Of a DNA stretch of 64,000 bases, positions 5,821 through 47,929 are shown piece by piece (within the stretch, counting starts at the first letter, position 1; each line of letters starts with the position of its first letter). Under the pieces are notes generated by a model. It was not told the DNA's origin, did not search any database, and worked only from the letters and a program-made list of their open reading frames with translations. Made by a program: the position numbers and the translations under genes. This stretch comes from a virus (lineage: Duplodnaviria; Caudoviricetes). Location of the stretch: IMG/VR virus record IMGVR_UViG_3300032285_001531; one strand, 5' to 3'.

Positions 5821-5850
5821 CATAATACAGTCAACTACTTCAATATTACT

Positions 5851-6455: not shown

Positions 6456-6463
6456 ATATTCTA

Positions 6464-7018
6464 ATGCGTGATATCATTACATTACTTGAGGATAAGAACA
6501 AACCTCAAGACATCGAAATAATTAATCTAAACTTTGAACCAAAAGACGTAAGCCCTGTCCTCAGCAAGGATACAATAGACTTACACTATGGTAAACTAGC
6601 CCATGGGTATGCAGAAAGATACAACAAGGGTGAAGGTGATCCTGATTTCAATTATGCAGGTGCATTTTTGCACAATACACTTTTCCCACAGTTCCGTGAA
6701 GTTCGTAATGATAACAAGCCTAATGGCCCTATGCTAGGATTCATCAAAAAACACTTTGGTGGATACGACAATATGAAGGATAAGTTTGAAGAAGAAGCTA
6801 TGAAGTTACAGGGTAGTAATTGGATTTATCTAGCGCACAATGGTACCATCAAAACAATCAAAAACCATGAAGTACGTAATGATATACTATTGTTAATTGA
6901 CTGGTGGGAACATGCATGGATCCTTGACTACGGCACAGATAAGAAAAAGTATCTAAAAGAACAGTGGAAGATCATCAACTGGAACGTCATCAACACACGT
7001 TGGGGCAAAAGTCTTTAA
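6464..7018 (+). CDS. sod: Fe/Mn superoxide dismutase
   Basis: LHYGK, AFLHN and DWWEHAW retain the four metal-ligand positions. Confidence 0.85.
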   Translation: MRDIITLLEDKNKPQDIEIINLNFEPKDVSPVLSKDTIDLHYGKLAHGYAERYNKGEGDPDFNYAGAFLHNTLFPQFREVRNDNKPNGPMLGFIKKHFGGYDNMKDKFEEEAMKLQGSNWIYLAHNGTIKTIKNHEVRNDILLLIDWWEHAWILDYGTDKKKYLKEQWKIINWNVINTRWGKSL

Positions 7019-26695: not shown

Positions 26696-28588
26696 TTAAT
26701 TTGCTTCTTTTACTTCGGCATCAACAACTGTTTCATCAGTTGGAGGACCATCTGGCATTTCTTTGTTGCGCTTCTCAGCTTCCCAAGCAATAGTTTTCTG
26801 CATCAACTCACCAATTTCTTTAACTGCTGCGTCCATGTCATCTTTACTATCGCCCTTTGCCGTCTCTTTATATTTACTTAGAGATTCAGTGATGGCTGTT
26901 TTTTCCTCAGCAGGAACATAATCACCTAAATTCTCAATTTGAGATTCAAGATGACCAATGCTACTATCTAAACTATTACGTGCACCAACAAGTTCAACAA
27001 TTTTCTTATCTTCTTCAGCATTCAATTCAGCATCTTTGACCATTTGATCAATCTCTTGCTCTGATAAGCCACTGTTTGCTTTGATTGTGATTTCTTTTTC
27101 TTTGTTGGTTTTCTTATCAACTGCTTTAACTGATAAGATACCATTCGCATCAATGTCAAATGTAACTTCAATTTGTGGTACTCCGCGTGGTGCTGGATCG
27201 ATACCTTCTAAATTGAATTCACCTAAACGTTTGTTACCACTTACAATCTCACGTTCACCTTGATAAACACTGATAGTAACTGATGGCTGATTGTTTTCTG
27301 CAGTAGAATAAACTTGACTGTACTTTGTAGGTATAGTTGTGTTCTTCTTAATCATCTTAGTCATAACACCACCCATTGTTTCAATGCCTAATGATAATGG
27401 AGTTACATCTAATAACAATACGTCTTTACGATCACCACCTAATACTGCACCTTGAATTGCTGCACCAACTGCAACGGCTTCATCAGGATTAACATCTTTA
27501 CGTGGAGCCTTACCGAATAGCTTCTCAACTTCTTCTTGCACCTTAGGCATACGTGTCATACCACCAACAAGAATAATCTCATCAATGTCACTTGCAGTAA
27601 CGCCTGCATCTTTCATTGCAACTTTACATGGCTCAATACTACGCTGAATTAAATCTTCTACTAATGATTCTAACTTAGCACGTGTGATCTTAACATTCAA
27701 ATGCTTAGGACCAGTTGCATCTGCAGTGATGTATGGTAAGTTAACATCAGTTTGTGTACTGTTAGATAGTTCAATCTTTGTACGTTCTGCTGCCTCTTTC
27801 AAACGTTGTAGTGCCATCATGTCTTTACTTAAATCAACACCTGAATCTTTTTTGAACTCAGCAATGATGTGATCCATTATTCTTTGGTCAAAATCTTCAC
27901 CGCCCAAGAATGTGTCACCGTTTGTGGAAAGTACTTCGAATTGTTTATCGCCATCCACATTATTGATGTCAATGATAGATATATCAAAAGTACCGCCACC
28001 AAGATCATAGACAGCAACTTTGCGGTCTGTTTTTTCATTCTTATCTACTCCATATGCCAATGCTGCTGCAGTTGGCTCATTAATAATACGCAATACTTCT
28101 AAGCCTGCAATTCTACCTGCATCCTTAGTTGCTTGACGTTGACTGTCATTAAAGTACGCTGGTACTGTAATAACTGCTTGTGTAACTTCTTCACCTAAGA
28201 AATCTTCTGCTGTCTTTTTCATCTTACGTAAAACTTCAGCACTTATTTGAGGTGGTGCATACTTCTTATCTTCTACTTGTACCCATGCATCACCGTTATC
28301 TGCTGCAACGATTTTATATGGAATCAAGTCAATATCTTTCTGTACTGCTTTCTCATCAAACTTACGTCCGATTAGTCGCTTAGCAGCATAGATTGTATTT
28401 TTTGGATTAGTTACAGCTTGACGTTTTGCTGGTGCACCAACAGTGATTTCACCGTTTTGCATATACGCAATAATACTAGGTGTAGTTCTTGCACCTTCGC
28501 TGTTCTCTAATACTTTTGGGGTTTTGCCATCTATGATAGCAACGCATGAATTGGTAGTACCTAGGTCGATACCTATAATCTTAGACAT
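26696..28588 (-). CDS. dnaK: Chaperone DnaK (Hsp70)
   Basis: [30 protein letters not shown]; full length; AAGGAG RBS. Confidence 0.98.
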
Positions 28589-28692
28589 ATTTTTCTCCTT
28601 TAAATTAAGCAAGATTTTTTATCAGAAGCCCGTAAGGCGCATCTGAGACATGTATTTATACATGGGAAAATGTAAAATATCAATATATTTGG

Positions 28693-30434: not shown

Positions 30435-30908
30435 GTTAGATTTATCATTTACCATACGGTCAAATTGACCACTCTTACCATCAAAGTAAAATCCACTAGG
30501 GTCTAGTATCTGACCTCGTAACTCAACCCAACTATGCGGTATCCATTTGAATTCTTCACGTATTGCAGGATCACTGTTTATGTATTTGATGCGGTCTGAT
30601 TTCTTGCGTGGATCAAGACCTAATTGTTTCATTGCTAATTTATCTTTTGTTTCTAGTGCGTCAATATGTAGATCAGGTTCGTCTGCATGAAACCATCCAT
30701 ATTTTTTCTTGCCGTTGTTTACAATACCAATAGGAACAATCTCGGCATTACCTATACCTTTATTCTCTAAGAATGATATAAAATCTTGACTGGCGCCATA
30801 ACAATTATCTTGTACAAAGTAATAGTTCAATTGCATTGGACTAGCTTGCTTCCAAAACTCAATTAATAATGGATCAATTTTTGATCCTGCAAGTTCAAAG
30901 ATTTTCAT
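30405..30908 (-). CDS. Transglutaminase/papain-like protein
   Basis: Start refined to MKIFEL; candidate triad DNCY / HSWVE / ILDP. Confidence 0.55.
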   Translation of the reverse strand: MKIFELAGSKIDPLLIEFWKQASPMQLNYYFVQDNCYGASQDFISFLENKGIGNAEIVPIGIVNNGKKKYGWFHADEPDLHIDALETKDKLAMKQLGLDPRKKSDRIKYINSDPAIREEFKWIPHSWVELRGQILDPSGFYFDGKSGQFDRMVNDKSNLSSRYRFFS

Positions 30909-31393
30909 TTTATACGAGGAATGACGTTGGTATCCCAATAGCTTTTCTTACCAATGCGACTTTTATCTACGTCTGGTAAATCTTGCCATTGTTTAGAACG
31001 TTGTTTGCTTTGCTCTACATCAAAGCCTGTGTAGTCATCAGGTACCCATTGCCATTTGTGATGATAGATCCAAGGATCAACTGCCTGTTTAGTTACTTTA
31101 ACGGTACCATCTGGTGATACTCTGATACTGGTACCACTGATTGGTTCGTCTGCAGTATCAAAGTCAGGTGATTCTATGAATGAGAATGTTTTTAACTTGG
31201 GATTGTATTTGATTACAGTAAAGTCAAAATCATTTGGGATTTTTGATTGTGCAAACTTTAATTCGTCTGCAGGAATTCCGGCTTCTATCGCATATTGTTT
31301 ATGCACATAAAGTTCTCCGCCAATACGCTTTCCTATCTTTCTAGGTTGTTGCGCAGCTTCTACTATGTTAATTAATTTACGTATATCACTCAT
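30905..31393 (-). CDS. Stand-alone domain resembling phosphorothioation-associated methyltransferase repeat
   Basis: GKRIGGELYVHK, SFIESPDFD, PWIYHHK...DDY; start refined to MSDIRK. Confidence 0.5.
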   Translation of the reverse strand: MSDIRKLINIVEAAQQPRKIGKRIGGELYVHKQYAIEAGIPADELKFAQSKIPNDFDFTVIKYNPKLKTFSFIESPDFDTADEPISGTSIRVSPDGTVKVTKQAVDPWIYHHKWQWVPDDYTGFDVEQSKQRSKQWQDLPDVDKSRIGKKSYWDTNVIPRIK

Positions 31394-31430
31394 AGATATA
31401 TTTATCTGGCAGGGCATAACCATTAGGTAG

Positions 31431-31449
31431 AAAAAGGTAGCAAGCTACC
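31431..31449 (-). terminator. Intrinsic terminator after pqqA
   Basis: GGTAGC-TT-GCTACC-TTTTT on minus strand. Confidence 0.7.
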
Positions 31450-31477
31450 CTTATCTTAAAACTTATTTTACAATGTA

Positions 31478-31549
31478 TTAGCGATTTGCAATGTACATTG
31501 TGATTTCAAAACCAAAACGCAAATCAGTTGCTTGAGGTATTGTCCACAT
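31478..31549 (-). CDS. pqqA: Coenzyme PQQ precursor peptide PqqA (23 aa, not in ORF track)
   Basis: [23 protein letters not shown] with the E-x-x-x-Y core; AAGGAGA RBS. Confidence 0.92.
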
Positions 31550-31659
31550 GTTATTCTCCTTAAATGAATACATATACTGCATATGTATTTAAGATATAGT
31601 AACACGTAAAAACACCAAGGTATTGCAGATAATCATTGGCTGATACTAATGAAAATCAT

Positions 31660-31845
31660 TAAAATGCTCTGCGACCCTCGGCGGTAATTATAGTACTAAC
31701 AGCTTCGTCTAGCTTTCGCCGCATCAACTGTTAAATACCTTCCACCCGCTCCCCGACAGGGTCCGTTCTCGCATTGCCAGCGCACTTTTCGCCTAAGTGT
31801 AAGGTCCTACGAGGAATTACCTCGCTTCTCATCTTCCGGACCAGA
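31660..31845 (-). ncRNA. Candidate structured ncRNA
   Basis: GC-rich ORF-free island with nested stems (GGTCC/GGACC, CGAGG/CCTCG, CACTT/AAGTG, GACCCT/AGGGTC, TAACAGTT/AGCTGTTA) and a GAAA tetraloop. Confidence 0.5.
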
Positions 31846-31856
31846 ATAGAGTGTGA

Positions 31857-32441
31857 TTAACACTCACGTTCTTTACGAATTCGCCATCTTTCTAATTGAG
31901 CTAGGCGAATTTTTTCTTTTTGTTCAATAGTCATAGGAATTCCTAATTTTCCATTTGGTTTTCCTTTTTTATTTTGACTTATTTTTTGATTTACTATATC
32001 CTGTTTTTCTTTACTAAACGGTTCTTGTTGTTGGCGAGCTAATTTTTTCCTTAATCGCAACTCCTCTGAGTTTTTTCTTCCCCGTAGTTTCTTGGCTCTT
32101 GCTTCTACTACTTCACGATCCTGTTTGAACCCACTGCTACCTTCTCCGCCTTCACTTTTGTTTAATAGTATTCCAGAACTATCAATGATTCTGCCATACC
32201 ATTTAATGAGTCTACGTTCAATCGCAAATGCTCCTATTTCAGTTAATCCGTCAGCTATCAATATAATATTTTTGCCATCAGGCGGCAAAGATATTTTATT
32301 ATGGGTTTCTACAATTCGTCTACCCTTACCTTTCCCTATATAATAAGGAGTTCCTTTTTTTCCGTGTCTTCCGTCTTTAGCTCTTAAATATGCATAAACG
32401 TAGAAATCTTTTGGAGTTTGAATATTGTATTTTTTTCTCAT
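31857..32441 (-). CDS. Free-standing homing endonuclease (GIY-YIG-like with NUMOD3-type tail)
   Basis: FYVYAYLR...PYYIGKG; NKSEGGEG; basic repeats such as KQKISQNKKGK. Confidence 0.75.
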   Translation of the reverse strand: MRKKYNIQTPKDFYVYAYLRAKDGRHGKKGTPYYIGKGKGRRIVETHNKISLPPDGKNIILIADGLTEIGAFAIERRLIKWYGRIIDSSGILLNKSEGGEGSSGFKQDREVVEARAKKLRGRKNSEELRLRKKLARQQQEPFSKEKQDIVNQKISQNKKGKPNGKLGIPMTIEQKEKIRLAQLERWRIRKEREC

Positions 32442-32506
32442 ACATTTATTTATCAAACTCTAATAGAATCCTGCGGGTCAGAGTATCCGTTGACAACGGA
32501 ACGTTC

Positions 32507-32590
32507 TGGTGGAGATTACTGGGATCGAACCAGTCGTGCTATAAGCGGCGGATTTACAGTCCGCTGCATCACCATTGATGCTTCATCTCC
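32507..32590 (-). tRNA. tRNA-Tyr(GTA)
   Basis: Loop CTGTAAA, long variable arm, CCA. Confidence 0.92.
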
Positions 32591-32595
32591 TTGTA

Positions 32596-32671
32596 TGGCT
32601 GCTCAACCTGGGCTCGAACCAGGGACAAACGGATTAACAGTCCGGTGCTCTACCAACTGAGCTATTGAGCA
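32596..32671 (-). tRNA. tRNA-Asn(GTT)
   Basis: Loop CTGTTAA, U1-A72, G73, CCA. Confidence 0.93.
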
Positions 32672-32693
32672 TTAATTTATTACGATAACTCAT

Positions 32694-32722
32694 ATTATAA
32701 GGAACTATGAGTTGAATGTCAA
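32694..32722 (-). promoter_or_regulatory. Sigma70 promoter for tRNA-Asn/Tyr
   Basis: TTGACA-17-TATAAT. Confidence 0.85.
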
Positions 32723-32746
32723 GTTGTATTTCTACAACAGTTAAAT

Positions 32747-32823
32747 TGGTCGGGGAAGTGGGATTCGAACTCCCGACCTCATGGTCCCAAACCATGCGCA
32801 CTCCCTGGCTGTGCTACACTCCG
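32747..32823 (-). tRNA. tRNA-Pro(TGG)
   Basis: Loop TTTGGGA, C1-G72, CCA. Confidence 0.9.
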
Positions 32824-32828
32824 ATGAT

Positions 32829-32904
32829 TGGTGGAGATTGTCGGACTCGAACCGACCACCTACAGCTTGCAAAGCTGCCGCTCTCCCAGATGAGCTAAAC
32901 CCCC
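32829..32904 (-). tRNA. tRNA-Ala(TGC)
   Basis: Loop TTTGCAA, G3:U70 identity pair, CCA. Confidence 0.93.
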
Positions 32905-32914
32905 CGATTGTTAC

Positions 32915-32989
32915 TGGTCCGGCGTGAGGGAATCGAACCCCCATAAAGGCTTTAGAAGAGCCTTGTCCTATCCGTTGAACGAACGCCAG
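32915..32989 (-). tRNA. tRNA-Arg(TCT)
   Basis: Loop CTTCTAA, CCA. Confidence 0.9.
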
Positions 32990-32999
32990 TAATTTCTTC

Positions 33000-33560
33000 C
33001 TATGATAATAAGATTCTACTGTGCTTAGGAACGCCAGACATTAAGTAATCCATTTGGTCTGCTAAGATATTACGATTCTGTAATATCATATTTTCGAAAT
33101 GATTTGGTTCGTATGGAACATATAACAACTCCATACTGCTTTCTTTTAATGTCATATCATCTTTCTTGCCGTTACATGGTCTACATGCAGTAACTACATT
33201 TGTCCATGCATTCAGTCCACCTCTGCTCTTTGGAACAATGTGATCTCTACTCAAGTTATGATGATTGTGAAAATGATCACCGCAATATGCACAAACATTC
33301 CTATCACGACCGAACAATGTTTTGTTAGTCAGTGCAACTTTGCCATGCTTGCTTATGTCAAATCCATGTCCATTGATTGCGATAATGCTAGGAGTCTCAA
33401 TATAGCTTTGTTGTCCGTTATTTTGAATTCCACCTCTGAACTTAGCAACTATTTCACCTAATGACCAAGCAACCATACCTTTTGCGTGATAAGTGATTGC
33501 AGTTTCATTGGAAATCCATTGTCTAGGAATTCCTGAAATATCTAATGCTAAAACAGACAT
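33000..33560 (-). CDS. HNH endonuclease
   Basis: RDRNVCAYC, DHIVPKSRGG, NVVTACRPCNGKK. Confidence 0.9.
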   Translation of the reverse strand: MSVLALDISGIPRQWISNETAITYHAKGMVAWSLGEIVAKFRGGIQNNGQQSYIETPSIIAINGHGFDISKHGKVALTNKTLFGRDRNVCAYCGDHFHNHHNLSRDHIVPKSRGGLNAWTNVVTACRPCNGKKDDMTLKESSMELLYVPYEPNHFENMILQNRNILADQMDYLMSGVPKHSRILLS

Positions 33561-34202: not shown

Positions 34203-34700
34203 TTAAACTTGTCCGTTTTGCAACAGTGTTAACATATTGTTAATATTATGTGATACATCTAATGATACGGATGAAACATATTGTATTGTGTCTGATGGGT
34301 CTACTATAAAGATAACACGACTAAATTCAGTATCTTGTTTAGTCAGTCCTAGTTTATTTGCTAAACTTAAGTCAGGGCGTGTGTTATCTGCGAATAACCA
34401 AGAAGAAATAGTATCGTTACTATTCTTCTTCATCAAAGTCCATGCTGTTTTACTAAAGTCCTGATCGGTAGAACCTATTAATATTACAGCATTCTTGTCG
34501 GTTATAGTTTCAAACAGATTATCAATGTTGTTTAATTCTAACGGAGGAACAATCTCAAAATTGTTAGGGTAGAAAAGTATTATTTTCCATTTATCAACAA
34601 AGTTTTTATTTGTAATTAATTTTCTGTTATTTGGACTGGTCTCATTTGGTTTGATTCCAGAAATCGCAAATTCACCTACTGTTTCTCCTACAGCTTTCAT
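34203..34700 (-). CDS. AhpC/peroxiredoxin-fold protein lacking the catalytic Cys
   Basis: KWKIILFYPNNFEIVPPLE vs canonical FYPKDFTFVCPTE; RVIFIVDP..TIQYV. Confidence 0.75.
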   Translation of the reverse strand: MKAVGETVGEFAISGIKPNETSPNNRKLITNKNFVDKWKIILFYPNNFEIVPPLELNNIDNLFETITDKNAVILIGSTDQDFSKTAWTLMKKNSNDTISSWLFADNTRPDLSLANKLGLTKQDTEFSRVIFIVDPSDTIQYVSSVSLDVSHNINNMLTLLQNGQV

Positions 34701-35116: not shown

Positions 35117-35247
35117 AATATTTCGTAATCTTCCTTGCCGCAACCGCATTCTGGGCAAACAAAATCATCCGGTAATTCATGCCATAGACCTTCAGTTGCT
35201 GGATCATGTTCATGACCACATACTACGCATATATGTACTTCACCCAT
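35113..35247 (-). CDS. Rubredoxin (44 aa, not in ORF track)
   Basis: MGEVHICVVCGHEHD...WHELPDDFVCPECGCGKEDY: two CxxC motifs; TAATG-coupled to rubrerythrin. Confidence 0.88.
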   Translation of the reverse strand: MGEVHICVVCGHEHDPATEGLWHELPDDFVCPECGCGKEDYEIL

Positions 35248-35714
35248 TATTGAACCTCCTGTAACATTGTTTGATATGCACTTGCATGACGCTTTTCTAC
35301 TTTTGCTAGTGCAGCAAATCGTTTTTGTGCTTTAACTAATACTTCCTTGAACTGTTCTGCATGTTCCGAACTTTCAACAATCTGATTTCTAAACTCGTTA
35401 AGTGCAGTGCGATCACCTTCAGCTTTGGCCTGTGCTTCAAAGCCCGGATACATGACAGTAAACTCATGTGTCTCACCCTCAATAGCCATTTCTAAACATT
35501 GTTTAGTTGTTGGCTTACCTACTAGTAATTCCAAATGTCCCCAAGCATGTAATAACTCTTGGTCTGCAGTGTGTTCAAAGTGTTTAGCAACATCCTCAAA
35601 CCCTTCTTCACGTGCAATCTTTGCAAAATAGCGATACTTGATATGTGCTTGACTTTCACCTGCTAATGCAGCCTCAAGATTTTTTAATGTGTCTGATACC
35701 TTTTCAAATGGCAT
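35247..35714 (-). CDS. Rubrerythrin (ferritin-like)
   Basis: TLKNLEAALAGESQAHIKY..FA..AREEG, ELLHA, EGETHE, EHAEQF. Confidence 0.9.
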   Translation of the reverse strand: MPFEKVSDTLKNLEAALAGESQAHIKYRYFAKIAREEGFEDVAKHFEHTADQELLHAWGHLELLVGKPTTKQCLEMAIEGETHEFTVMYPGFEAQAKAEGDRTALNEFRNQIVESSEHAEQFKEVLVKAQKRFAALAKVEKRHASAYQTMLQEVQ

Positions 35715-35845
35715 AGTGTTTCCTTTCAATGTGTGTATATTATATATGCCTATTAGCACCGTTGTAAATATAGGTTTTGGCTATTTTTTGATTGTATTTT
35801 TCAATAGAATTAATAGGTGATGTCAATCTATTTGTAAATAGAACT

Positions 35846-36730
35846 ATGCCCTCAGGAATAGTTTTCAACCCAAATAGTTACGATATAGTATTCTTAAGCT
35901 ATGATGAACCAAACGCTGACATAAACTATCAGCACCTTCTTTCAATAAAACCCAAAGCAATGAGAGTACATGGAGTCAAAGGCAGTGATGCCGCACATAA
36001 AGCATGTGCTGAGTTAGTTAAGACTGAACGTGTTATAATTGTAGACGGAGACAATCATGTATTGCCCAATATATTTGGTCGTAACGTTTATACCAAAACA
36101 GATTATGATTGGACTGATAAAGTATTCAGTTGGAGTAGCGTCAACGTAATTAATCATACTAGCTATGGCAACGGTGGAGTTAAATGCTGGCCTGTCAAAT
36201 TGATTAAAGAAATGCGTACACATGAAGTAGGGTCGAGTATTGATTTTGACTTATCCAATTACCTAGAACTCAACGCAATAGGCAGTCACACTATCATAAA
36301 CGGTTCTGCTAAACAAGCATTTAGAGCAGGATTCAGAGATGGAGTAAAACTTAGTTTAGTCAAAGATGATTGGCGAACTGATAATAGACTGTACAACTGG
36401 TTGCACGTAGGCAGTGACGTAGAGTTTGGGCTGTGGACTATATATGGTGCTAGACTAGGACGATTCATGTTGAAACGTGATTTTGATGTAACTATATTGA
36501 ATGACTTTGATAAATTGAATCAGATGTTCAGCAAATATTACGGGATAGCACATAATAATCTTGAATATGAATGCAATAGATTAGGTGAATTATTAGATAT
36601 AGGCCCAGTGCTAAGTATAGAAGAAAGTATAAATTTTAAACAGAATTACAAAGCACCTATAAGAAGTCCAGAACTTTTTATGGGTGGCGATAGACAAGAT
36701 GCTATAAATAAATTTAATGAACGAATTTGA
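35846..36730 (+). CDS. Glycosyltransferase family 2-like protein
   Basis: DIVFLSYDEPNAD, IVDGDN DxD motif; start refined after GTAAATA. Confidence 0.65.
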   Translation: MPSGIVFNPNSYDIVFLSYDEPNADINYQHLLSIKPKAMRVHGVKGSDAAHKACAELVKTERVIIVDGDNHVLPNIFGRNVYTKTDYDWTDKVFSWSSVNVINHTSYGNGGVKCWPVKLIKEMRTHEVGSSIDFDLSNYLELNAIGSHTIINGSAKQAFRAGFRDGVKLSLVKDDWRTDNRLYNWLHVGSDVEFGLWTIYGARLGRFMLKRDFDVTILNDFDKLNQMFSKYYGIAHNNLEYECNRLGELLDIGPVLSIEESINFKQNYKAPIRSPELFMGGDRQDAINKFNERI

Positions 36731-37697
36731 TAAGATACCATTTGATAGAATAACAAAATTTGGGCAACAGACAATGTTGCAATATCCTCTTTTTTCTATT
36801 AGTTGGATACTAGGAAGATTCTGTAATTATAAATGCTCATATTGTTGGCCCTATGCTAACTCCAGTACACCAGACTATCAATCACTAGATACATATAAAA
36901 AATCTATAGACGAAATAAAACGTCAAGCCAAAGCAAATGGATTCAGAGACTTTCATTGGTCTTTTAGTGGTGGTGAGCCAACTGCATATAAACATCTACT
37001 AGAATTAATCAGACACCTAGATGATAATGTTACTCCCTATCAAAGCATACACCTGACTACTAATTTAAGCCCTAGTAAGAAGTGGTGGATGAATTGGGGA
37101 ATGGCAACTGAGTTGATTCAACGTAAGTCAATCACTGCAAGTTTTCATAGTGAGTTTGCAAACGAAAGTGAATTCACTGACAAGTGTTTATTCTTAATGG
37201 GCGAAAATGTACATGTTACTATCAATCAAGTAATGGTACCTGATCAGTTTGATGAACTATATGCCCGTTGCAAACGATTTAGTGATAAAGGAATAAATGT
37301 AACATTAAAGCCACAAAGTAATGATACTGCCACAGAGATAGTAAGCGGCTACAATGATGAAATGATTACACTTATGCGTAACGGTTTTCCACAGCAACAT
37401 AAAAAGACACAGTTCTATCAAATCAAATTATATGAAAACGATACTGAATATGAATTGGATCAAGCAGAAAGATTCAATGCGTTTGGGTTTAATAAGTTTG
37501 AAGGATGGAGTTGTAATTCAGGATATCAAAGTGTTATAATACGTAGTAATGAGGTTAAGCGTGGCTATAGTTGTCGTGATGAAATATTAGGCACATTAGA
37601 TAATGGCTTTACCTTATTCAGTGAACCAAAAGTTTGTGTGACTCCTAGTTGCGTGAGTAGTGCAGACAGTAAGATACCAAAATGCAAATTGACTTAG
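36717..37697 (+). CDS. Radical SAM protein
   Basis: CNYKCSYC, FSGGEP; C-terminal Cys-rich (Twitch/SPASM-like) domain. Confidence 0.9.
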   Translation: MNEFDKIPFDRITKFGQQTMLQYPLFSISWILGRFCNYKCSYCWPYANSSTPDYQSLDTYKKSIDEIKRQAKANGFRDFHWSFSGGEPTAYKHLLELIRHLDDNVTPYQSIHLTTNLSPSKKWWMNWGMATELIQRKSITASFHSEFANESEFTDKCLFLMGENVHVTINQVMVPDQFDELYARCKRFSDKGINVTLKPQSNDTATEIVSGYNDEMITLMRNGFPQQHKKTQFYQIKLYENDTEYELDQAERFNAFGFNKFEGWSCNSGYQSVIIRSNEVKRGYSCRDEILGTLDNGFTLFSEPKVCVTPSCVSSADSKIPKCKLT

Positions 37698-38275
37698 ACC
37701 ATGTAATGTTTTGGATGGATGCTATACGTAATAGCAGTGACCCTAAGCGCACATTAGAATCATTTTGGAAGGGTCAATTACGTAGTAAGCGTTGGCTAAT
37801 AGAAGAACTAACTCCATTCATAGTTGAGCCTATGAGTTTTGATATACACGGTGGTTGGAACGGAGTATTAGCAAGTATGATATTCCAAAGCAATATGCCT
37901 GTAAAGAATATTCGTAGTGTAGACATTGATCCTTCATGTGAAGAAATTTGTCGCACAATGAATAAGTTAGAAGAAATAGCAGGACGTTTTCGTGCAGTAA
38001 CCGCAGATATGTGTAATATACGTAGTGATGCGGATGTCATTATCAATACAAGTTGTGAACATATATCACAGGATGAATATGATATGTGGCTAAGCGGCAT
38101 ACCTCAGAACAGTCTTATAGTGTTACAAAGTAATGATTATAAGATTGATGAACACGTTAGAGTGGTTGACAGTTTAGAAGAATTTGTAAGTCAGAGTGAC
38201 ATTGATGTAGAGTATAGTGGCGAGTTTGAATTGCCACTATATACTCGTTATATGATTATTGGAAACAAATACTAA
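37682..38275 (+). CDS. SAM-dependent methyltransferase-like protein
   Basis: IHGGWNG glycine loop, SVDIDP, INTSCEH. Confidence 0.7.
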   Translation: MQIDLDHVMFWMDAIRNSSDPKRTLESFWKGQLRSKRWLIEELTPFIVEPMSFDIHGGWNGVLASMIFQSNMPVKNIRSVDIDPSCEEICRTMNKLEEIAGRFRAVTADMCNIRSDADVIINTSCEHISQDEYDMWLSGIPQNSLIVLQSNDYKIDEHVRVVDSLEEFVSQSDIDVEYSGEFELPLYTRYMIIGNKY

Positions 38276-39330
38276 TTGTCCCAAACAGTAGGATTGTTTA
38301 TTCTACCCGTAAAGTTCCCGCAATTGCCTGCACATGCTGCTAAGCGACCCTCACTATATTTACGCCCATCCCAACTCTCTTGTATCTTGTTATAAAATAC
38401 ATTGTCTATGATGTTATGCCACTCAGTTTCATATAGATTAACTTTACTTTTACCTTCAGTATCCCAAAGATGATCCCAACCATCGGGTACAGTTAATGTT
38501 ACTCTGCTATATAAACTAGCACCTAAGAAACAACAAGGAAATACATTACCCTGACTGTCAATATATACACTACGGTCTTTCTTAGCATAGCAATCTATAT
38601 TACTATTCTCACTACTATCTAACCATTGCTGTACATCTAATTTCTTTAATGGTTGCATGACCACACTGTGTACATATTTCTCATCAGTTGGTGGCTCAAT
38701 TATAACTCCATCTGTACCAACAGGTCTACGACCTAAAATATTATCTAATGCGAATCTATGACTAGATATAATGATAAAGTTTTTAAAGCCTAAGTCTTTG
38801 CTAAGTTCTTTTGCTTCATCTACTTGATGTTGATTATGTTTGAATACAATGAACTGCCAATTAGCAATACCACCTGCATTAATGAATGCTATACTGTTAA
38901 CCATTACCTTCTGATAGTTTACATTCATACGATAGATATGATTAGTATTCGATAACCCATCTATAGCAAAGTTAACCTCATGATTGGGACCTAATGCTTC
39001 TACTAACATAGTCCAAAATATAGGGTTCTTCATGCCACCATTAGTGCTAATCTTAATCATAGCATTAGGAGCTTTCTCTCTAGCCTTCTTTACTACCTCA
39101 ATAAAGTTTGGGGCAGCGCACGGATCTCCCATTGTGCCACTGAATAATATCTTTTTTATATTTGCATATACATGATCGGGTATACGGTCAAAGAACTCTG
39201 TTGTCAAGTGTGTTTGCTTGAACCAACTATAGTCACCCGGATATGTTTCACGTAAGCATTGTGGACATGCAGCATTACATATACTGCTGTTCTCTATATC
39301 TAAGTTTATTATGTTATCGTAGAAATTCAT
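38272..39330 (-). CDS. Radical SAM protein with SPASM/Twitch domain
   Basis: CNAACPQC, GTMGDP, GNVFPCC, C-terminal CAGNC. Confidence 0.9.
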   Translation of the reverse strand: MNFYDNIINLDIENSSICNAACPQCLRETYPGDYSWFKQTHLTTEFFDRIPDHVYANIKKILFSGTMGDPCAAPNFIEVVKKAREKAPNAMIKISTNGGMKNPIFWTMLVEALGPNHEVNFAIDGLSNTNHIYRMNVNYQKVMVNSIAFINAGGIANWQFIVFKHNQHQVDEAKELSKDLGFKNFIIISSHRFALDNILGRRPVGTDGVIIEPPTDEKYVHSVVMQPLKKLDVQQWLDSSENSNIDCYAKKDRSVYIDSQGNVFPCCFLGASLYSRVTLTVPDGWDHLWDTEGKSKVNLYETEWHNIIDNVFYNKIQESWDGRKYSEGRLAACAGNCGNFTGRINNPTVWDN

Positions 39331-39338
39331 GTAGTTAT

Positions 39339-40031
39339 TTAATTTATTTTAATAGCCTGATCTATCAATGATTCAGGATAGTTACTTCTAAAGCTATTAA
39401 AACATATTAGTTGTAATGTTGGTATATCGTATGGTGTATCTAAATCCATTTTATAATGATCCAACATTAATTGCAACTTATCCTGACGGTCTATGCTTAT
39501 TTGTATTAGCAAATCACGTATTTTAATTTTAGGATCAGTTTTATTAAAAGAAAAGAACCAATTATATGGAGTAAGCACTCCGTCTATAGCTACCCAACTG
39601 TTCGGATGTAAACTAAATTTATAAATGCCTGCTTTCTTCATTTCAGTGATTCTATCTAACCACTGTGCTTGCCAGTTCGGTAATACTTTATCGTATCCAC
39701 CATTGTTAATCCCTTGCATTAAAAAATCATCACCATGCCAATCAATGTATATTTCTCTTTTGAAAACATTAATGTCTTGTATTTTTAATGTGGGTATACT
39801 TGCTTTACGTGCAATCTCATGAAAAGTTACTTCACGTGAAAATCTATCAGTAAGAAGTTCGTTTGTCCAAAGTTTGTTTTCTTCTGGCCATCTGTGGTAA
39901 TTAACATCTCTGTTAAAACTCATGCATAATGTTTTCTTATCCGGGCTTACGTAAGGAGTGTATACTAAGTTAGAACGTACCCATTCTTGTCCTTCTAAAT
40001 TATAAAGAAATGTCCAATTATCAGTTATCAT
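39339..40031 (-). CDS. Hypothetical protein, possibly degenerate kinase-like fold
   Basis: FSREV, LHPNS and NWFF resemble kinase subdomains but lack the catalytic Asp residues. Confidence 0.4.
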   Translation of the reverse strand: MITDNWTFLYNLEGQEWVRSNLVYTPYVSPDKKTLCMSFNRDVNYHRWPEENKLWTNELLTDRFSREVTFHEIARKASIPTLKIQDINVFKREIYIDWHGDDFLMQGINNGGYDKVLPNWQAQWLDRITEMKKAGIYKFSLHPNSWVAIDGVLTPYNWFFSFNKTDPKIKIRDLLIQISIDRQDKLQLMLDHYKMDLDTPYDIPTLQLICFNSFRSNYPESLIDQAIKIN

Positions 40032-40078
40032 ATATTTGTCTCCTGAATATTTATAATAAATACCAACAGGAGAATAAA

Positions 40079-40861
40079 ATGATTCGTGGCATAGGTGGAA
40101 AACCTTTTATTAATTTAGATAATCTAATAGACATTGACGGATTTAAAAAGCTACACTATAAAATCTGCAAGGGGATACTAGATTCTGATTACAAAAAAGA
40201 AGGCAATATGGTTCAGCCCGGTGGGTTTAATAACGCATATGAGTTAACCTTTAAGCCATTGTTTCAAGCATTAGAAGAATATCATAATTTACCCGAGGAT
40301 CATGAAATTAGAATTTTGGGTAGAGAAATAGGTGAATATCAAAATCGTGATAAATTTATGCTGTTTCTTAAACTAGCACTAGGTGCATATGATGCATATC
40401 AATTTGTATTTTTAAAGACCGAAGAAGGTGGTTGGGAAAGTAGATTTGAAGAAAAAGCATGGACTCCTGATGCAAAGTATTTCCCTGAACTTAAACTATG
40501 GTTAGAAAATTTGATTACCACAGGTGTATTCAAACACTTAGGTAGAATCATAATTTTTAAAGCAGAGCATGATTGTTATATGCCATTACACAGAGATTTA
40601 ATTTATCCTGAAGAAAACGATTACTTTAATCATAGACATGAGTTTATACATTTACGTACTAACTTAGATAAACCTTTTTATATTTGGGATCGTGATGCTG
40701 ATAGTAAGATACTAACAGATAGTCATGCTACATTTTTTAACGATCAGGACTGGCATGCAGGTGGACGCACTAATAAACAAACCTATAGCATACGTGTTGA
40801 TGGTATATTTACTGATGAATTTCGTGAAAAGATGGGAATCAATAATTTAGATTTTTATTGA
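40079..40861 (+). CDS. 2OG-Fe(II) oxygenase-like protein
   Basis: LHRD (HxD), distal WHAG, YSIRVDG; AGGAG RBS. Confidence 0.65.
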   Translation: MIRGIGGKPFINLDNLIDIDGFKKLHYKICKGILDSDYKKEGNMVQPGGFNNAYELTFKPLFQALEEYHNLPEDHEIRILGREIGEYQNRDKFMLFLKLALGAYDAYQFVFLKTEEGGWESRFEEKAWTPDAKYFPELKLWLENLITTGVFKHLGRIIIFKAEHDCYMPLHRDLIYPEENDYFNHRHEFIHLRTNLDKPFYIWDRDADSKILTDSHATFFNDQDWHAGGRTNKQTYSIRVDGIFTDEFREKMGINNLDFY

Positions 40862-42318
40862 TTAAGTTTTTTACGTTTATATTTTTCAATATGTGCCTGC
40901 TTTGCAAAATAATATGTACTTGTCTCGTTGTTAATTATTTCTTCTAATACATTATCATTTATTAAAGACTTTGGCTGCTCAAAGAAATGAGCCATAGTAA
41001 AATTGTTTACAGGATTGGTATTGATAGTAGAATCATTAAAATCATATGCCATTTTCTTTGCTGTGGCATGAGTAAAATGATCGTTCTGCCAATTTATAAC
41101 ATGATTGTGTTTAAATATATTATATGAATCATCGTATTCTTCTTCAGTGTTTAATCTATAGCCATACTTTTGAAGATCCAAAGAAATCTTACTCGGCTTA
41201 AGTGATTTACTATCCACAGATGGAATTTCAAGACCAAAACTTTTTACACTTTGATGATTCTTAATCCAGTAATTATCAATCCAATCAAATGTATCCTGTT
41301 GAGTGTCAACTGTTTCACCGGGCAAGCCAATTACTAAAGCTATAGTTGCACGATAGGGTAAACTTTCAGATTTAAAATAACTAATAACGTCTAATAGACC
41401 TTGCTGAAGTCTTTCCTTTTTGATTCCTTTTCCTATAAATTTAGCTGTAGGGGTGTTCATAGTTTCTATACCATAGAAGTGACCAAGTAAACCCATGCGA
41501 GCCATATGCTCTCTATCCTGTTTTCGTAGTACTAATAAATCTGCTCTAATAAAGCCTGAGAAATAAGGATTGAAACTTAACTGTTCAGTAGCATCTGCAA
41601 ATTTTATTAGTTTCTCTGTACTTTCATTTATAGTTTCATCACCAATTAGATATTTTGTTACACCGTAATCATCATATGTTCTTTGTAGTTGCGTAGTATA
41701 ATTATCAGCATCTCGTGTATAATCGCCCTTTACTCCAAGTATAGGAAAATTACAGTATGGACATTCAAACTTGCATCCGCGTCCAAGCTCTATGCCTAAC
41801 CATTCGTTAGATTCTATATAATCTCTTTTTTCATAAACTATATCTAAGTCTTTTAAAGGTGCGCTAGGATAAAAAGAATTACCGTCAATAACTTTTTTAT
41901 CATACATAATTTTAAATCTTACCGATGGGCCATTGCCTACAAGATTTTTCAACAAGGCTAAAATAGCATTTTCTCCAAATCCTGTTATATAATAATCAAT
42001 GTCTTTAGAAATAGTATCTGGAATATATTGACCGCCTATAACCATTTTAACTTGTGGGTAATTAATTTTAACCCAAGAAATAAATGAATCAATTTCTGGA
42101 GGATACAGTCCAAAAGTACAACTGAATCCTAATAGTTTTGTAGAAGAATCAATTCTTTGAGTAGCAAGTAATTTTAACTCATCTAATGAAAAATAGTTAG
42201 CCCAATCTATTACTTCAACATCCCAATCATTTTTTCTCATTATAGTAGCAATACGATGAGCACCAGGACTTCGGTATGGCATGTCTGTTTGAAGATTAAA
42301 AATTATAGATTTAAACAT
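40855..42318 (-). CDS. B12-binding radical SAM protein
   Basis: N-terminal cobalamin-binding-like domain (MVIGG, GFGE), RGCKFECPYC, GIET. Confidence 0.88.
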   Translation of the reverse strand: MFKSIIFNLQTDMPYRSPGAHRIATIMRKNDWDVEVIDWANYFSLDELKLLATQRIDSSTKLLGFSCTFGLYPPEIDSFISWVKINYPQVKMVIGGQYIPDTISKDIDYYITGFGENAILALLKNLVGNGPSVRFKIMYDKKVIDGNSFYPSAPLKDLDIVYEKRDYIESNEWLGIELGRGCKFECPYCNFPILGVKGDYTRDADNYTTQLQRTYDDYGVTKYLIGDETINESTEKLIKFADATEQLSFNPYFSGFIRADLLVLRKQDREHMARMGLLGHFYGIETMNTPTAKFIGKGIKKERLQQGLLDVISYFKSESLPYRATIALVIGLPGETVDTQQDTFDWIDNYWIKNHQSVKSFGLEIPSVDSKSLKPSKISLDLQKYGYRLNTEEEYDDSYNIFKHNHVINWQNDHFTHATAKKMAYDFNDSTINTNPVNNFTMAHFFEQPKSLINDNVLEEIINNETSTYYFAKQAHIEKYKRKKLNQ

Positions 42319-42802
42319 CGTAGATTGTTAGTTGTAGACTTACTTTAGGTATGAATGTTAGATTAGCACTACCATGTAATGCAGTTGGATCATCAAATTC
42401 AAATATATCACCGGCTTGATAATCAGAGATAAGTTTATCTTTGTAAACAAATATATGACCTGTAATGTAGTCTTGATAAGGAATCCAAAGTCGCCTAACA
42501 TTACAGCCGTTATCTTTAAATGTATCTACGTGCATTGGAAATAAACATGCAGGATCAAGACGAACGAACCACCAATCTATGTTTCCTGTATACGGTATTG
42601 GCAATTCAATATCATTGATTCCAATTTCTTCGTAATAAAATCTCCATCTTGCGCCGGCTACATCAAGACCTTGATAGTCTTTGCCTTGCGCTCTTGCCTT
42701 TTCGCTTTCTTCTTTCCCAGGACGAACTTGACCTTCACTGTTCATTACTGCATCAAGTAATTCTTGCTTTACCCAATTTTTATAATTTCCTAGATATTTC
42801 AT
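42311..42802 (-). CDS. 2OG-Fe(II)/Asp-hydroxylase-like oxygenase
   Basis: FPMHVD (HxD), ALHGSAN, KVSLQ. Confidence 0.7.
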   Translation of the reverse strand: MKYLGNYKNWVKQELLDAVMNSEGQVRPGKEESEKARAQGKDYQGLDVAGARWRFYYEEIGINDIELPIPYTGNIDWWFVRLDPACLFPMHVDTFKDNGCNVRRLWIPYQDYITGHIFVYKDKLISDYQAGDIFEFDDPTALHGSANLTFIPKVSLQLTIYDV

Positions 42803-42817
42803 AGATAAGTATTTATT

Positions 42818-44206
42818 ATGTCAGATAGAATCAAAACATTTATAAAACTCATTGAAGATAGAACCGGTACTCCAACATTCTGCGCACTACCTTGGATACA
42901 TTTAGCAACTAGACCTAATGGAGATGCTAGACTATGCTGTGTTACTAATGCTAGTGGCGCACATACAGGAGATCATACTGTAGGATTAGTTAAAAAAGAA
43001 AACGGTGTTCCTGCAAACTTCGGTAAAGATACCCCATTAAGTGCAATTAATAATCAATATATGCGTGATGTACGACTAACAATGTTAGACGGAAAGATCC
43101 CTGCAAGTTGCACAAAATGCTTTGAGGAAGAAGATAACGGTGTAGTCAGCAAAAGATTATGGGAACTATATTCATGGGATAAAGATGGACTAGACTTTAA
43201 TGAATTAATAGATAATACGCAAGTTGACGGAACTATTCCTCCTGTGTTAAGATACTTAGACTTACGTTTAGGACATACTTGTAATCTTAAATGTGTTATG
43301 TGTAGCCCGCATGATAGTAGTCGCTGGTTACAAGACTATGAGAAAGTAATGAGTAAAACTACTAGTCCTATTGTTATTAAACAAATCAAATGGGATAAGT
43401 TAGAATTTGATAATTTTTGGTATGAAAAATCAGAGTTTTGGGATGAAATATTCGAACAAATTCCCAATATAACTCAGCTATACTTTGCTGGTGGTGAGCC
43501 ATTAATGATTAAAGAACATCGTAGATTCTTAGATGAGATAATCAAACGTGGATATAATAAGCAAATTACATTAAGATATAATAGTAACGGAATATATGTT
43601 AATGACGATATTATTAATGTATGGAGCCAATTTAAAGAAGTAAAGTATGCATTCAGTATTGACGGAAACTTCGATAGAAACGGATACATACGATTCCCAA
43701 CAGACTGGACAGATATTGAACGTAGCCTAGATTTACTAGACAATACTCCAGACAATATTCATTGTAGTATTGCTTGTGCTGTACAAGTGTTGAATATCAA
43801 ACACATCGTTAATTTCGCCAAGTGGAAACTGTCGAAAGGCTACAAGAAAATCAACAAGTACAAGATGGATGACTATGAAGCAGGTGGTGGCATAATTAGT
43901 CTACACTTGCTTTATATTCCTACATTCTTATCTGCACGTATTCTTCCAGAGAAGGATAAAGCAGAAGTAAGACAACAAATATTAGATTTTAAGGAATGGT
44001 TATGGACAAATTATACACAAGACGAGAATTTTTGGCAGGTAAATCCTTATGGATGGAAGCGTTGGGAAGCTATCTTACGTTTTATAGACAAGGAAGATCA
44101 TAGTCATATGGTCCCCGACTTTGCAGAATATGTAAAGAACTTAGATAGTATTAGGGGAACAGATTTCGCTGCGACTTTCCCTGAACTCGCACATCTACTT
44201 TCGTAA
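42818..44206 (+). CDS. Radical SAM protein with N-terminal Twitch-like domain
   Basis: FCALPW...RLCC...CTKC; CNLKCVMC; FAGGEP. Confidence 0.9.
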   Translation: MSDRIKTFIKLIEDRTGTPTFCALPWIHLATRPNGDARLCCVTNASGAHTGDHTVGLVKKENGVPANFGKDTPLSAINNQYMRDVRLTMLDGKIPASCTKCFEEEDNGVVSKRLWELYSWDKDGLDFNELIDNTQVDGTIPPVLRYLDLRLGHTCNLKCVMCSPHDSSRWLQDYEKVMSKTTSPIVIKQIKWDKLEFDNFWYEKSEFWDEIFEQIPNITQLYFAGGEPLMIKEHRRFLDEIIKRGYNKQITLRYNSNGIYVNDDIINVWSQFKEVKYAFSIDGNFDRNGYIRFPTDWTDIERSLDLLDNTPDNIHCSIACAVQVLNIKHIVNFAKWKLSKGYKKINKYKMDDYEAGGGIISLHLLYIPTFLSARILPEKDKAEVRQQILDFKEWLWTNYTQDENFWQVNPYGWKRWEAILRFIDKEDHSHMVPDFAEYVKNLDSIRGTDFAATFPELAHLLS

Positions 44207-45080
44207 GAGGAATATCTGCTGCACATGTGCAACTGTCACGTGTGCAGATTACAGGATCAATAGGTAATTCAAATGTATCATTATATATATTACCTAAACT
44301 TCCTCCTACTCTACATGTAGCACGATGTACTTCCCCGTCCCAATTAATCATTAAACTTTCTAATCCTGCAGTACAAGTCCAACCCTTAAACTTATTCTTA
44401 TGCAATTTAATTATGTCATTGGCATGCATTAGTTCTATATCATCAATAATAGTGTTAGGCTTAACAGTTGCAGTTCTACTTAATATCCAGTCTAAATCAT
44501 TTTGGTCATAGCGCATATCGTCAAATATATTATGATCACCTTCTGTCCAACGTATTCTGCGTATAGCATATGGTATATCCCATCTATCAAAAGCAAAGAC
44601 TGCCTTACGAACTTCTTCCATCTTATCAGGATGAGCCATGACATTAATCATAAAAGGCTTGATTACTGCTTCAGGACTATCGGATCTAGCAAACATTAAT
44701 ATATTCTCTAATACATTTTCCCAGTCATATTCAAAGTGTAAGCTGAATACATAATGACTAACAGGTAAATTAAGATAATAACTTGCTTTTCTAGTTCCAT
44801 TAGTAGTAACGTTGATCCACTGTATATCACTATCTACACAATACTGTACTAATTCTTCGAACTGTGGATGTACACAGGGTTCTCCACCTGTAAAGCTAAT
44901 TCTACTACTCTTTGAAAGCTTATCTACTGCACGTTTAAGTATCTCTATATCTGTATGCGGGCTAGATAAGTCATGTATCTGTGAAGGACAATAACTACAG
45001 TCATAGTTACAGCGTTTCCCTAAGTTCCATTCAACCTTAATCTTATCCTGATGTGCGTATGCGCTTGTTATTTTATACAT
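44151..45080 (-). CDS. Radical SAM protein with C-terminal SPASM-like domain
   Basis: CNYDCSYC, FTGGEP, WTCTAG...CTRDSCTC. Confidence 0.9.
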   Translation of the reverse strand: MYKITSAYAHQDKIKVEWNLGKRCNYDCSYCPSQIHDLSSPHTDIEILKRAVDKLSKSSRISFTGGEPCVHPQFEELVQYCVDSDIQWINVTTNGTRKASYYLNLPVSHYVFSLHFEYDWENVLENILMFARSDSPEAVIKPFMINVMAHPDKMEEVRKAVFAFDRWDIPYAIRRIRWTEGDHNIFDDMRYDQNDLDWILSRTATVKPNTIIDDIELMHANDIIKLHKNKFKGWTCTAGLESLMINWDGEVHRATCRVGGSLGNIYNDTFELPIDPVICTRDSCTCAADIPLTKVDVRVQGKSQRNLFP

Positions 45081-46338
45081 ATAGTTTAAACTCTGGTGTC
45101 ACTTCTACAAATTTACGACTATCTCTGCTATTATCTAAACGTCTATTAAATTCTACAGTATCAGGCCATAAATGACTTTCATCTTTACTACGAATAAAGT
45201 TAATTACCCCGTCAATTTGCTGTAATGTTAGATTTAATAATATACTATGCTGTTTAACATATTTAAAGTCAGGGACTTTAGTCTTTATTGCTTCTAGTCT
45301 ACTAACAGCTAATTCTTTTAATTCATTGGGCATAGTCTGTACACTTAATACGTTAGGATATTTAACCATATTAGTATAGAATACAATACCCAAATCATCT
45401 AGGAAGTATTCTATCATCTTATCTAATACTAACACATTACTTACTTGCACTGCTACTGCCCCTACTATACGTGTAATATTAGGAATAGTCTGTACTTGTT
45501 TAATATTGTTGATTAATTCACTCCATACCGCGTTTCCACGTATATATTCATAACTATCAGCATAACCGTCTATACTAACGTTCACAGCTACACTCTTGAA
45601 TTTGGGCCAGTACTCCCATATAGTACGATTACTCTTCCCTAGTGTGGTCAAGTTTGTAGCATACTTAATCTCAATGTTATCTCCATAGGGTGCAAGCATA
45701 TCTAATATACGATAATGCTGTGGATCCATCAACGGTTCGCCACCTGCAAACTCTACTCTACGGAAGTATGGGAGATTCTTCTCTAAGCTATTCCACCATT
45801 CAGGATTATTCTGAAATTCATCTAATAAAGGTTTATTCTCTAAATTATGTTCTTCTACTAGATTGTAAATTACTTTGCCCTCGTCTTTATAAAAGTCTTT
45901 AATCTCACTCCAGTCATTCCAACTTGTGCTATCGCCCGGGTGACACATACGACACTTAAGATTACATAAATTGTTTAATTTTAATTCCATTGTAGGAATA
46001 CCTTCGGGCATAACGTAATCATCATTTAACTTGCTTAATGCATCAGGATATAGATTAATACGTGCTTCAGGAATAACTCCGGCTATGTGTCGTTGTCTTA
46101 AACTTTCTACACCCTGATCTTCTAAACTGAAACAGGGTTCGCATTCAGATGGACGTATATCATTTAATACTTGATGACGTATACGCTTCATATTATCATT
46201 GTTCCATACTTCTTCTAATGATTCTTTCTGTATCCAACCTATAGGGTGACTGCGGCAACATGCTTGTATGGCTCCATCTTCTCTTGTAGCAAGCCCTGTA
46301 AAAGGATGCATACAAAATGTTTTACTTGTTTTGTTCAA
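45073..46338 (-). CDS. Radical SAM protein with N-terminal Twitch-like domain
   Basis: Probable TTG start; FCMHPF...ACC...CEPC; CNLKCRMC; FAGGEP. Confidence 0.88.
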   Translation of the reverse strand: MNKTSKTFCMHPFTGLATREDGAIQACCRSHPIGWIQKESLEEVWNNDNMKRIRHQVLNDIRPSECEPCFSLEDQGVESLRQRHIAGVIPEARINLYPDALSKLNDDYVMPEGIPTMELKLNNLCNLKCRMCHPGDSTSWNDWSEIKDFYKDEGKVIYNLVEEHNLENKPLLDEFQNNPEWWNSLEKNLPYFRRVEFAGGEPLMDPQHYRILDMLAPYGDNIEIKYATNLTTLGKSNRTIWEYWPKFKSVAVNVSIDGYADSYEYIRGNAVWSELINNIKQVQTIPNITRIVGAVAVQVSNVLVLDKMIEYFLDDLGIVFYTNMVKYPNVLSVQTMPNELKELAVSRLEAIKTKVPDFKYVKQHSILLNLTLQQIDGVINFIRSKDESHLWPDTVEFNRRLDNSRDSRKFVEVTPEFKLYV

Positions 46339-47906: not shown

Positions 47907-47929
47907 AATTTTATTTAATAAATATAGTC

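Follow-up and report, generated by a model that had tools for sequence, protein, structure and literature searches.

The window analysed here, a 64-kb stretch of DNA from a large tailed phage, carries on its minus strand (31478-31549) a gene for a 23-residue peptide of the PqqA family, the precursor of the cofactor PQQ. Direct translation gives 23 codons (31549-31481) followed by a TAA stop (31480-31478), and a six-frame search of the window found this one PqqA-like ORF (31549-31478) only. The peptide scores 31.8 bits against the PqqA model TIGR02107 (cut-off 20, E = 9.2e-8), the check that an earlier note on this DNA had named for its proposal of a PqqA precursor at this place, and 36.2 bits against PF08042 (cut-off 21.1, E = 5.6e-9). 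It has the size and leader of the family (about 20-40 residues, W-x-x-P...D/E-x-R), and its core, GFEITMY, follows the family pattern G-x-E-[VI]-T-x-Y, is identical to that of Burkholderiales PqqA and contains the Glu-X3-Tyr pair as Glu15 and Tyr19. PqqA is made on the ribosome. PqqE, together with PqqD, joins its Glu to its Tyr; PqqF, PqqB and PqqC then trim and oxidise the cross-linked peptide to PQQ. One PqqA is spent for each PQQ made, and the peptide is a consumable substrate rather than a catalyst.

A frame this short could be a chance ORF, and the mechanical ORF list does contain an overlapping, GTG-initiated ORF of 45 codons in a different frame (31605-31468) that might be taken for the true gene. 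The E-values of 9e-8 and 6e-9 speak against such an accident, as do the near-identity of the phage peptide to bacterial PqqA and the retention of the PqqA frame, with a synonymous bias, across 56 nucleotide versions of the viral gene. Since the cut-offs of both PqqA models are exceeded and 20 of the 23 residues are identical to a bacterial PqqA, we give a chance origin practically no weight. The 45-codon ORF itself found no support as a real gene and is refuted as far as sequence analysis reaches. Judged by these comparisons, 31549-31478 is a genuine and intact PqqA-family gene in phage DNA, and the identification made in the earlier note holds.

The window is phage DNA, and pqqA is flanked by phage genes on both sides (phrog_16075, phrog_15526 and a tRNA island). 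It has a G+C content of about 35% and contains 16 tRNA genes, both subunits of a class Ia ribonucleotide reductase (nrdA and nrdB, strong PHROG matches), a tail-fibre-like protein (PHROG), an HNH endonuclease and a 947-residue protein whose C-terminus matches the baseplate wedge of the Methylophilales phage Melnitz. A megablast search with 3 kb around pqqA returned no match among GenBank phages. The window also encodes a full-length Hsp70/DnaK (26696-28612), with 854 bits to PF00012 and 67-71% identity to gammaproteobacterial DnaK, as well as an AhpC/TSA peroxiredoxin (34203-34700) and a rubrerythrin (35247-35759) that lie less than 1 kb apart and are possible oxidative-stress auxiliary genes.

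Within this DNA, the pqqA cassette sits inside the phage tRNA island. Its downstream neighbour on the same strand (30905-31423) encodes a 172-residue phage protein of unknown function, phrog_16075, and five tRNA genes (Tyr, Asn, Pro, Ala and Arg; 32507-32989, minus strand) lie upstream. Just upstream of the cassette is a 199-residue ORF (31857-32456) that matches phrog_15526, a phage family of unknown function, and also has a weak match to a homing endonuclease family (phrog_314, E = 4.8e-5); no homologue of it was found beside pqqA in the other viral loci. Between this ORF and pqqA there is a 175-nt island on the minus strand (31661-31835) with 51% G+C, compared with 30-37% around it. In AT-rich phages, structured RNA genes typically stand out by such a rise in G+C. 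An Rfam search of 31300-33100 recovered tRNAs only; the island itself had no Rfam or tRNA match, nor any blastn match in the loci that we fetched.

The signals around the gene were read directly from the minus strand. A Shine-Dalgarno sequence, AAGGAGA (31561-31555), which had been noted before, stands 5 nt ahead of the ATG; of the 90 viral pqqA loci described below, most have an AGGAG-type site in the equivalent position. The 5′ leader element (31592-31568) consists of the motif TTAAATA (31592-31586) overlapping an AT-rich hairpin (about 31588-31568) with the arms ATACATAT and ATATGTAT. The inverted repeat that the earlier note had seen upstream is present, but the stability of its fold does not exceed that of shuffled sequence (z = -0.3). 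The motif and the hairpin both recur in a homologous cassette on another viral contig, L008, with one compensatory change from A-T to G-C, and in shifted form on a further contig, L084. A general 5′ hairpin as a feature of viral pqqA leaders was considered and rejected, because the leaders (50 distinct sequences) did not fold more strongly than those of control genes (p = 0.21).

At the other end of the gene, a hairpin resembling an intrinsic terminator, GGGTAGC-TT-GCTACC (31450-31436), is followed by a run of five T (31435-31431). The segment folds with -11.5 kcal/mol (z = -1.8), and the stem-loop GGTAGCTTGCTACC is found in identical form 3′ of pqqA in L008; the terminator scan reported the inverted repeat (31436-31449) on the plus strand only, and the T run on the minus strand comes from direct reading. 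Hairpins of -8 kcal/mol or lower with a T run were detected within 90 nt in 25 of 61 distinct pqqA cassettes, a set made up of 60 viral cassettes and the window's own, which reached only -6.3 in the same script. The terminator, which had been placed at 31431-31449, is plausible and conserved.

The evidence for a separate transcription unit is divided. A promoter scan of the minus strand in the 311-nt spacer upstream of pqqA (31550 to 31860) yielded nothing resembling a sigma-70 site, and the spacer as a whole folds with z = -0.9. Neither TTAAATAC (5 found against 7.7 expected) nor the T4 late consensus TATAAATA (6 found against 14 expected) is enriched in the window, and the reading of TTAAATA as a late promoter is unsupported. 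Transcription from the upstream ORF and the tRNA block may read through into pqqA, as there is no terminator in between. Of the transcription unit of its own that had been claimed for pqqA, the 3′ boundary thus stands as plausible and conserved, but the promoter side does not.

When positions 30900-32500 of the window were used as a blastn query against the viral loci, nucleotide similarity was confined to the whole pqqA cassette, 177 nt at 31429-31605 on the minus strand. L008 aligns over 31605-31429 only (181 columns, 76%), L091 over 31611-31476 and L084 over 31592-31475, and the flanks of the cassette in all three do not align to the window. In L008 the cassette also comprises a ribosome-binding site, the pqqA gene and the same terminator, amid surroundings unrelated to those in the window. 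The neighbourhood gives the complementary picture. Homologues of the 172-residue downstream gene occur in 27 viral loci (39-63% identity), and in the surrounding DNA that was retrieved, at most 4 kb to either side, all of them lack pqqA; in the four closest relatives, the homologue is directly flanked by tRNA genes. It follows from this absence and from the tRNA-flanked relatives that the cassette does not belong to a syntenic core but is an accessory insertion within a plastic tRNA island, and that pqqA is dispensable, given that relatives with the same neighbouring gene lack it. That a 177-nt cassette is common to the window and an unrelated viral contig, and is an accessory insert in the tRNA island, is a new detail of this analysis, as are the peptide type described below and the lack of support for a late promoter.

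Viral copies of pqqA proved to be common. Searching IMG/VR with a degenerate DNA pattern for W..P...DLR.G.E[VI]T.Y yielded 90 viral contigs. The pattern did not demand ORF length, start, stop or ribosome-binding-site features, and the match is nevertheless an ORF of 21-25 codons in 90 of 90 contigs, with a start 1-3 codons ahead of the Trp (ATG in 89, GTG in one) and a stop 3-5 codons past the Tyr. The position of the cassette varies between phages. Among the 56 distinct nucleotide versions, entropy at third codon positions far exceeds that at first and second positions in those core codons on which the pattern placed no constraint (Phe, Phe, Met, Ile and Arg), which indicates that purifying selection acts on the core of viral PqqA, and certain viral peptides equal bacterial ones across all 22 residues from Trp to Arg. 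The gene bears two marks of a phage auxiliary metabolic gene, in that it lies inside phage DNA and is a close homologue of a host metabolic gene under selection in viruses. Conservation in related phages, which the earlier note had put forward as a check, is not supported by the 27 loci that share its neighbour, all of which lack the gene in the DNA examined; it is found on 90 viral contigs with a synonymous bias.

A tblastn search of GenBank phages with the peptide gave 12 records, nine of which are cultured phages of Methylophilales or Methylophilaceae (four of Melnitz, and Venkman, MEP301, MEP401, MEP402 and P19250A) and one an uncultured member of the Caudoviricetes. In the cultured-phage records the gene is unannotated; examples are Melnitz (MZ577097.1, 76140-76205), MEP301 (MW452941.1, 3316-3384), Venkman (MT375522.1, 9977-10045) and P19250A (KX815270.1, 28085-28153). 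The Melnitz record places a hypothetical ORF, gp152, over pqqA on the opposite strand, and pqqA lies there next to a tRNA-Leu gene. The two remaining records, both labelled 'Acinetobacter phage MD-2021a' (CAKLQF020000010.1 and CAKLQH020000055.1), were discarded as bacterial contigs with a complete pqqBCDE operon; the first resembles a bacterial chromosome, as it carries fur and ppk along with the full operon. Other contigs of both MD-2021a assemblies carry a dnaK gene.

Two alternatives to a metabolic role may be taken up here. The first is that pqqA is recently captured host DNA, or neutral cargo hitch-hiking in a plastic tRNA island and perhaps moved by the homing-endonuclease-like ORF. Its absence from 27 of 27 loci with the same neighbouring gene, the weak phrog_314 match of the adjoining 199-residue ORF and the different positions of the cassette in different phages would all fit such a history. 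Against it speak the intact ORF, ribosome-binding site and terminator of the gene, a cassette G+C of 30.5%, which is phage-like and unlike the 42-70% of the DLR-type bacterial loci among the matches listed, and the retention of pqqA in at least 90 viral contigs and in the nine cultured Methylophilales-phage records that the GenBank search gave. We consider this alternative unlikely. The second is that the phage makes a decoy PqqA, which would titrate PqqD or PqqE of the host and shut down PQQ synthesis, or would interfere with the host in some other way. In principle, the host's PqqA could face competition from a phage leader able to bind PqqD, and PqqA-family peptides have been described as co-expressed with defence systems (PMC11118758). 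A decoy would be expected to lose the Glu or the Tyr, yet the phage peptide retains both cross-link residues and the entire core; moreover, bacterial PqqA is matched residue for residue by several of the viral peptides, and the core is under purifying selection. Interference of this kind is very improbable.

Two further viral loci deserve mention in their own right. On L002 (IMGVR_UViG_3300030202_003475), an NAD-dependent formate dehydrogenase (5477-6664; NF005750, 636 bits) lies 72 nt downstream of the viral pqqA and forms a second auxiliary gene of one-carbon metabolism beside the PQQ precursor. Three IMG/VR contigs (L038, L039 and L072) carry PqqA of the enterobacterial type (MWKKPEFVDLRLGLEVTLYISNR) with no pqqB-E match downstream, suggesting from the peptide type that phages or prophages of hosts akin to Enterobacterales, too, can have pqqA on its own.

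When the larger ORFs of the 64-kb window were scanned against Pfam and NCBIfam, none of PqqB, PqqC, PqqD and PqqE was detected, and neither the PqqD-like family PF05402 nor the PqqE model TIGR02109 matched any of the phage ORFs scanned. Joint encoding with pqqB, C, D and E, which is a usual but not a strict feature of PqqA, orphan chromosomal copies being documented (PMC4109929), is thus not seen in the window. As an independent test, we collected 672 ORFs encoded no further than 4.2 kb beyond bacterial pqqA genes, a set that includes PqqB-E for most loci, and compared them by tblastn with the window and the 90 viral loci. In the bacteria, a PqqB-sized ORF lies no more than 400 nt downstream of pqqA at 69 of 93 loci; the phage gene, by contrast, is solitary, is surrounded by AT-rich phage DNA and possesses a ribosome-binding site and a terminator of its own. 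The same search revealed no pqqB-E near the other 90 viral copies, and an NCBIfam scan of 104 representative ORFs downstream of viral pqqA listed 25 families with no pqq family among them; next to the viral copies lie genes for phage lysis enzymes and terminases as well as further metabolic genes. The lack of pqqBCDE in the window, as first reported, is borne out by both approaches.

The window does contain enzymes that could, at first sight, use the peptide for something else. Radical SAM, SPASM, twitch and oxygenase-like genes are clustered from about 35.8 to 52.5 kb, and the dense part of this cluster at 35792-48610 has no recognisable product. Pfam matches to radical SAM fall in six ORFs between 36.7 and 46.4 kb, three of them with a SPASM domain, and two of these three are N-terminal twitch-domain enzymes (42818-44206 and 45073-46404) above the NF033640 cut-off. 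The cluster includes a SPASM enzyme (38272-39330), an ORF resembling B12-binding radical SAM methyltransferases (40855-42318; a weak match, below the cut-off) and an Asp/Asn hydroxylase-like protein (47930-48610). The sole tblastn match in the window from the 672 ORFs is a weak one to a radical SAM motif of 75 residues (36804-37016), from a PqqE-like ORF of Methylococcaceae.

It is therefore conceivable that PqqA is a substrate of this cluster and is turned into a phage-specific product instead of PQQ, and the six radical SAM ORFs, with their SPASM and twitch domains, and the weak PqqE-like match are what speak for it. Several observations oppose it. None of the phage radical SAM enzymes matches PqqE (TIGR02109), the models of named radical SAM maturases all remain far below their cut-offs, and no PqqD or RRE domain was found in any phage ORF scanned against Pfam, so that one mark of a RiPP precursor, a nearby RRE or PqqE maturase, is missing here. 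More than 4 kb of DNA with tRNAs, the HNH endonuclease, peroxiredoxin and rubrerythrin separates pqqA from the cluster. The flanks of the cassette are unrelated in the other viral contigs that have it; phages of only 35-43 kb have pqqA, and in three of them there is no radical SAM gene in the 5 kb around it, so that a second mark, the co-occurrence of precursor and maturase across genomes, is missing in these viral loci; and the radical SAM family is absent from the 25 families listed for ORFs downstream of viral pqqA. We regard use by the phage's own enzymes as highly unlikely, in agreement with the earlier view that they are the less likely user.

Comparison with bacterial peptides provides some indication of the host. 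We scanned bacterial genomes for DLRFGFE[VI]TMY and recovered at least 120 loci. The nearest PqqA peptides among the matches listed, with 20 of 23 residues identical, are those of Derxia lacustris and of metagenome-assembled genomes of Oxalobacteraceae and Burkholderiaceae, which share with the phage peptide its length, the W-x-x-P leader, the GFEITMY core and the C-terminal IANR. The phage peptide is thus of the 'DLR...IANR' type found in Burkholderiaceae, Oxalobacteraceae and Derxia. PqqE scores above the cut-off in three near-match genomes (G001-G003), and in Derxia PqqB and PqqC were verified directly after pqqA.

The cultured phages of Methylophilales and Methylophilaceae, in contrast, carry PqqA of an 'EMR' type (..TEMRFGFEVTMYVMNK, ..QEMRFGFEVTMYIMTR) that is 61-65% identical to the phage peptide. 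EMR-type pqqA is present in 56 of 401 genomes sampled from the order of G001, genomes of 1.3 Mb included. G001 itself, a Burkholderiaceae genome assembled from Lake Mendota, has the DLR type and lacks the EMR type, while G137, G223, G181 and G377 lack the DLR type; in the five genomes tested for both, the two types are mutually exclusive. Five genomes of this order (G137, G223, G265, G181 and G377) contain 2-7 copies of EMR-type pqqA each, two of them, 1.3 Mb in size, having 3 copies apiece. Viral PqqA types track the bacterial ones. For instance, the viral peptide WETPTYVDLRFGFEVTMYIYNR is 21/22 identical to peptides of Cycloclasticus and Methylococcaceae, and the contigs with it encode nrdA about 68% and nrdB about 70-72% identical to those of the window.

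The peptide type therefore suggests a Burkholderiaceae- or Oxalobacteraceae-like host, and a phage PqqA matched to the PqqD and PqqE of a betaproteobacterium, but G+C content points elsewhere: the DLR-type bacterial loci among the matches listed have 42-70% G+C compared with about 35% in the phage. A methylotrophic host, which the earlier note had thought possible, is not established. The match to Burkholderiaceae, Oxalobacteraceae and Derxia and the mutual exclusion of the EMR and DLR types in the five genomes leave it without support, the Methylophilales phages carrying the EMR type and this phage the DLR type.

A bolder proposal can be made. The 17-kb radical SAM, twitch and oxygenase-like cluster of the phage might take up its PqqA and convert it into a different quinone-like cofactor or peptide product specific to the phage or, in a milder form, pqqA might be a mobile promoter-to-terminator cassette whose peptide is tuned to host PqqD and PqqE. 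We hold this to be a long shot; if true, a host-tuned viral PqqA type could mark the host lineage of uncultured phages.

We instead favour, at a probability of roughly 0.8, an explanation in which phage pqqA serves as an auxiliary gene and replenishes the stock of PQQ precursor that the PqqBCDE enzymes of the host use up. With a lone, genuine PqqA and no pqqB-E in the window, this remains the best reading, as it was in the earlier note. Because PqqB, C, D and E are all missing from the window, the peptide could become PQQ only via host enzymes, unless pqqB-E lie elsewhere in the phage genome. In this mechanism the phage would transcribe its own pqqA during infection, so that the supply of precursor would last when host transcription falters. 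Host PqqBCDE would go on making PQQ from the phage-supplied precursor, and PQQ-dependent periplasmic dehydrogenases for methanol, alcohol or glucose, together with the respiratory energy that they provide, would run until lysis. In Methylophilaceae genomes, one pqqBCDEFG set is accompanied by 3-12 copies of pqqA (PMC4109929), which, along with the up to seven EMR-type copies per genome seen here, argues that the dosage of the precursor is limiting. The orphan pqqA genes of Methylophilaceae resemble the phage copy in standing apart from the pqqBCDEFG set (PMC4109929), but they are chromosomal and of another sequence type, whereas the window's copy is on a phage.

A phage PqqA is not new as such, so that the novelty implied for it earlier does not hold. 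Viral PqqA was published in 2020 from T4-like phages of Lake Baikal with about 35% G+C, where genes for methanol dehydrogenase, ribonucleotide reductase and radical SAM proteins accompany it and where it was proposed to be an auxiliary metabolic gene (PMC7678222), and a 2026 reservoir study lists viral pqqA, pqqD and pqqE as auxiliary genes (PMC13188868). The closest parallel is VP_266 from Lake Baikal (Coutinho et al. 2020, Microbiome 8:163), which likewise has a stand-alone pqqA on a large contig of a T4-like freshwater phage with about 35% G+C and for which the same role was proposed, that of an auxiliary gene supporting PQQ-dependent dehydrogenases. Its partner VP_139, as described there, has radical SAM genes and ribonucleotide reductase, as the window does. 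The Baikal contigs with methanol dehydrogenase were assigned to Methylophilaceae hosts, whereas the window has no methanol dehydrogenase. Among cultured phages, Melnitz, Venkman, MEP301, MEP401/402 and P19250A resemble the window in having a stand-alone pqqA of 23-24 codons that annotation missed, and in Melnitz there is a tRNA gene nearby, as in the window; the cultured phages are of the EMR type and the window of the DLR type.

Viral copies of pqqA are thus common, and the one described here is a sound but ordinary example. At this size, pqqA is about the smallest auxiliary metabolic gene possible for a phage. Gene callers skip it, and viral genomes consequently under-report a link to PQQ-dependent oxidation of alcohols, methanol and sugars. 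The DLR type of this peptide, which differs from that of the methylotroph phages, suggests that the trait extends beyond Methylophilaceae hosts, and the peptide type might aid host assignment.
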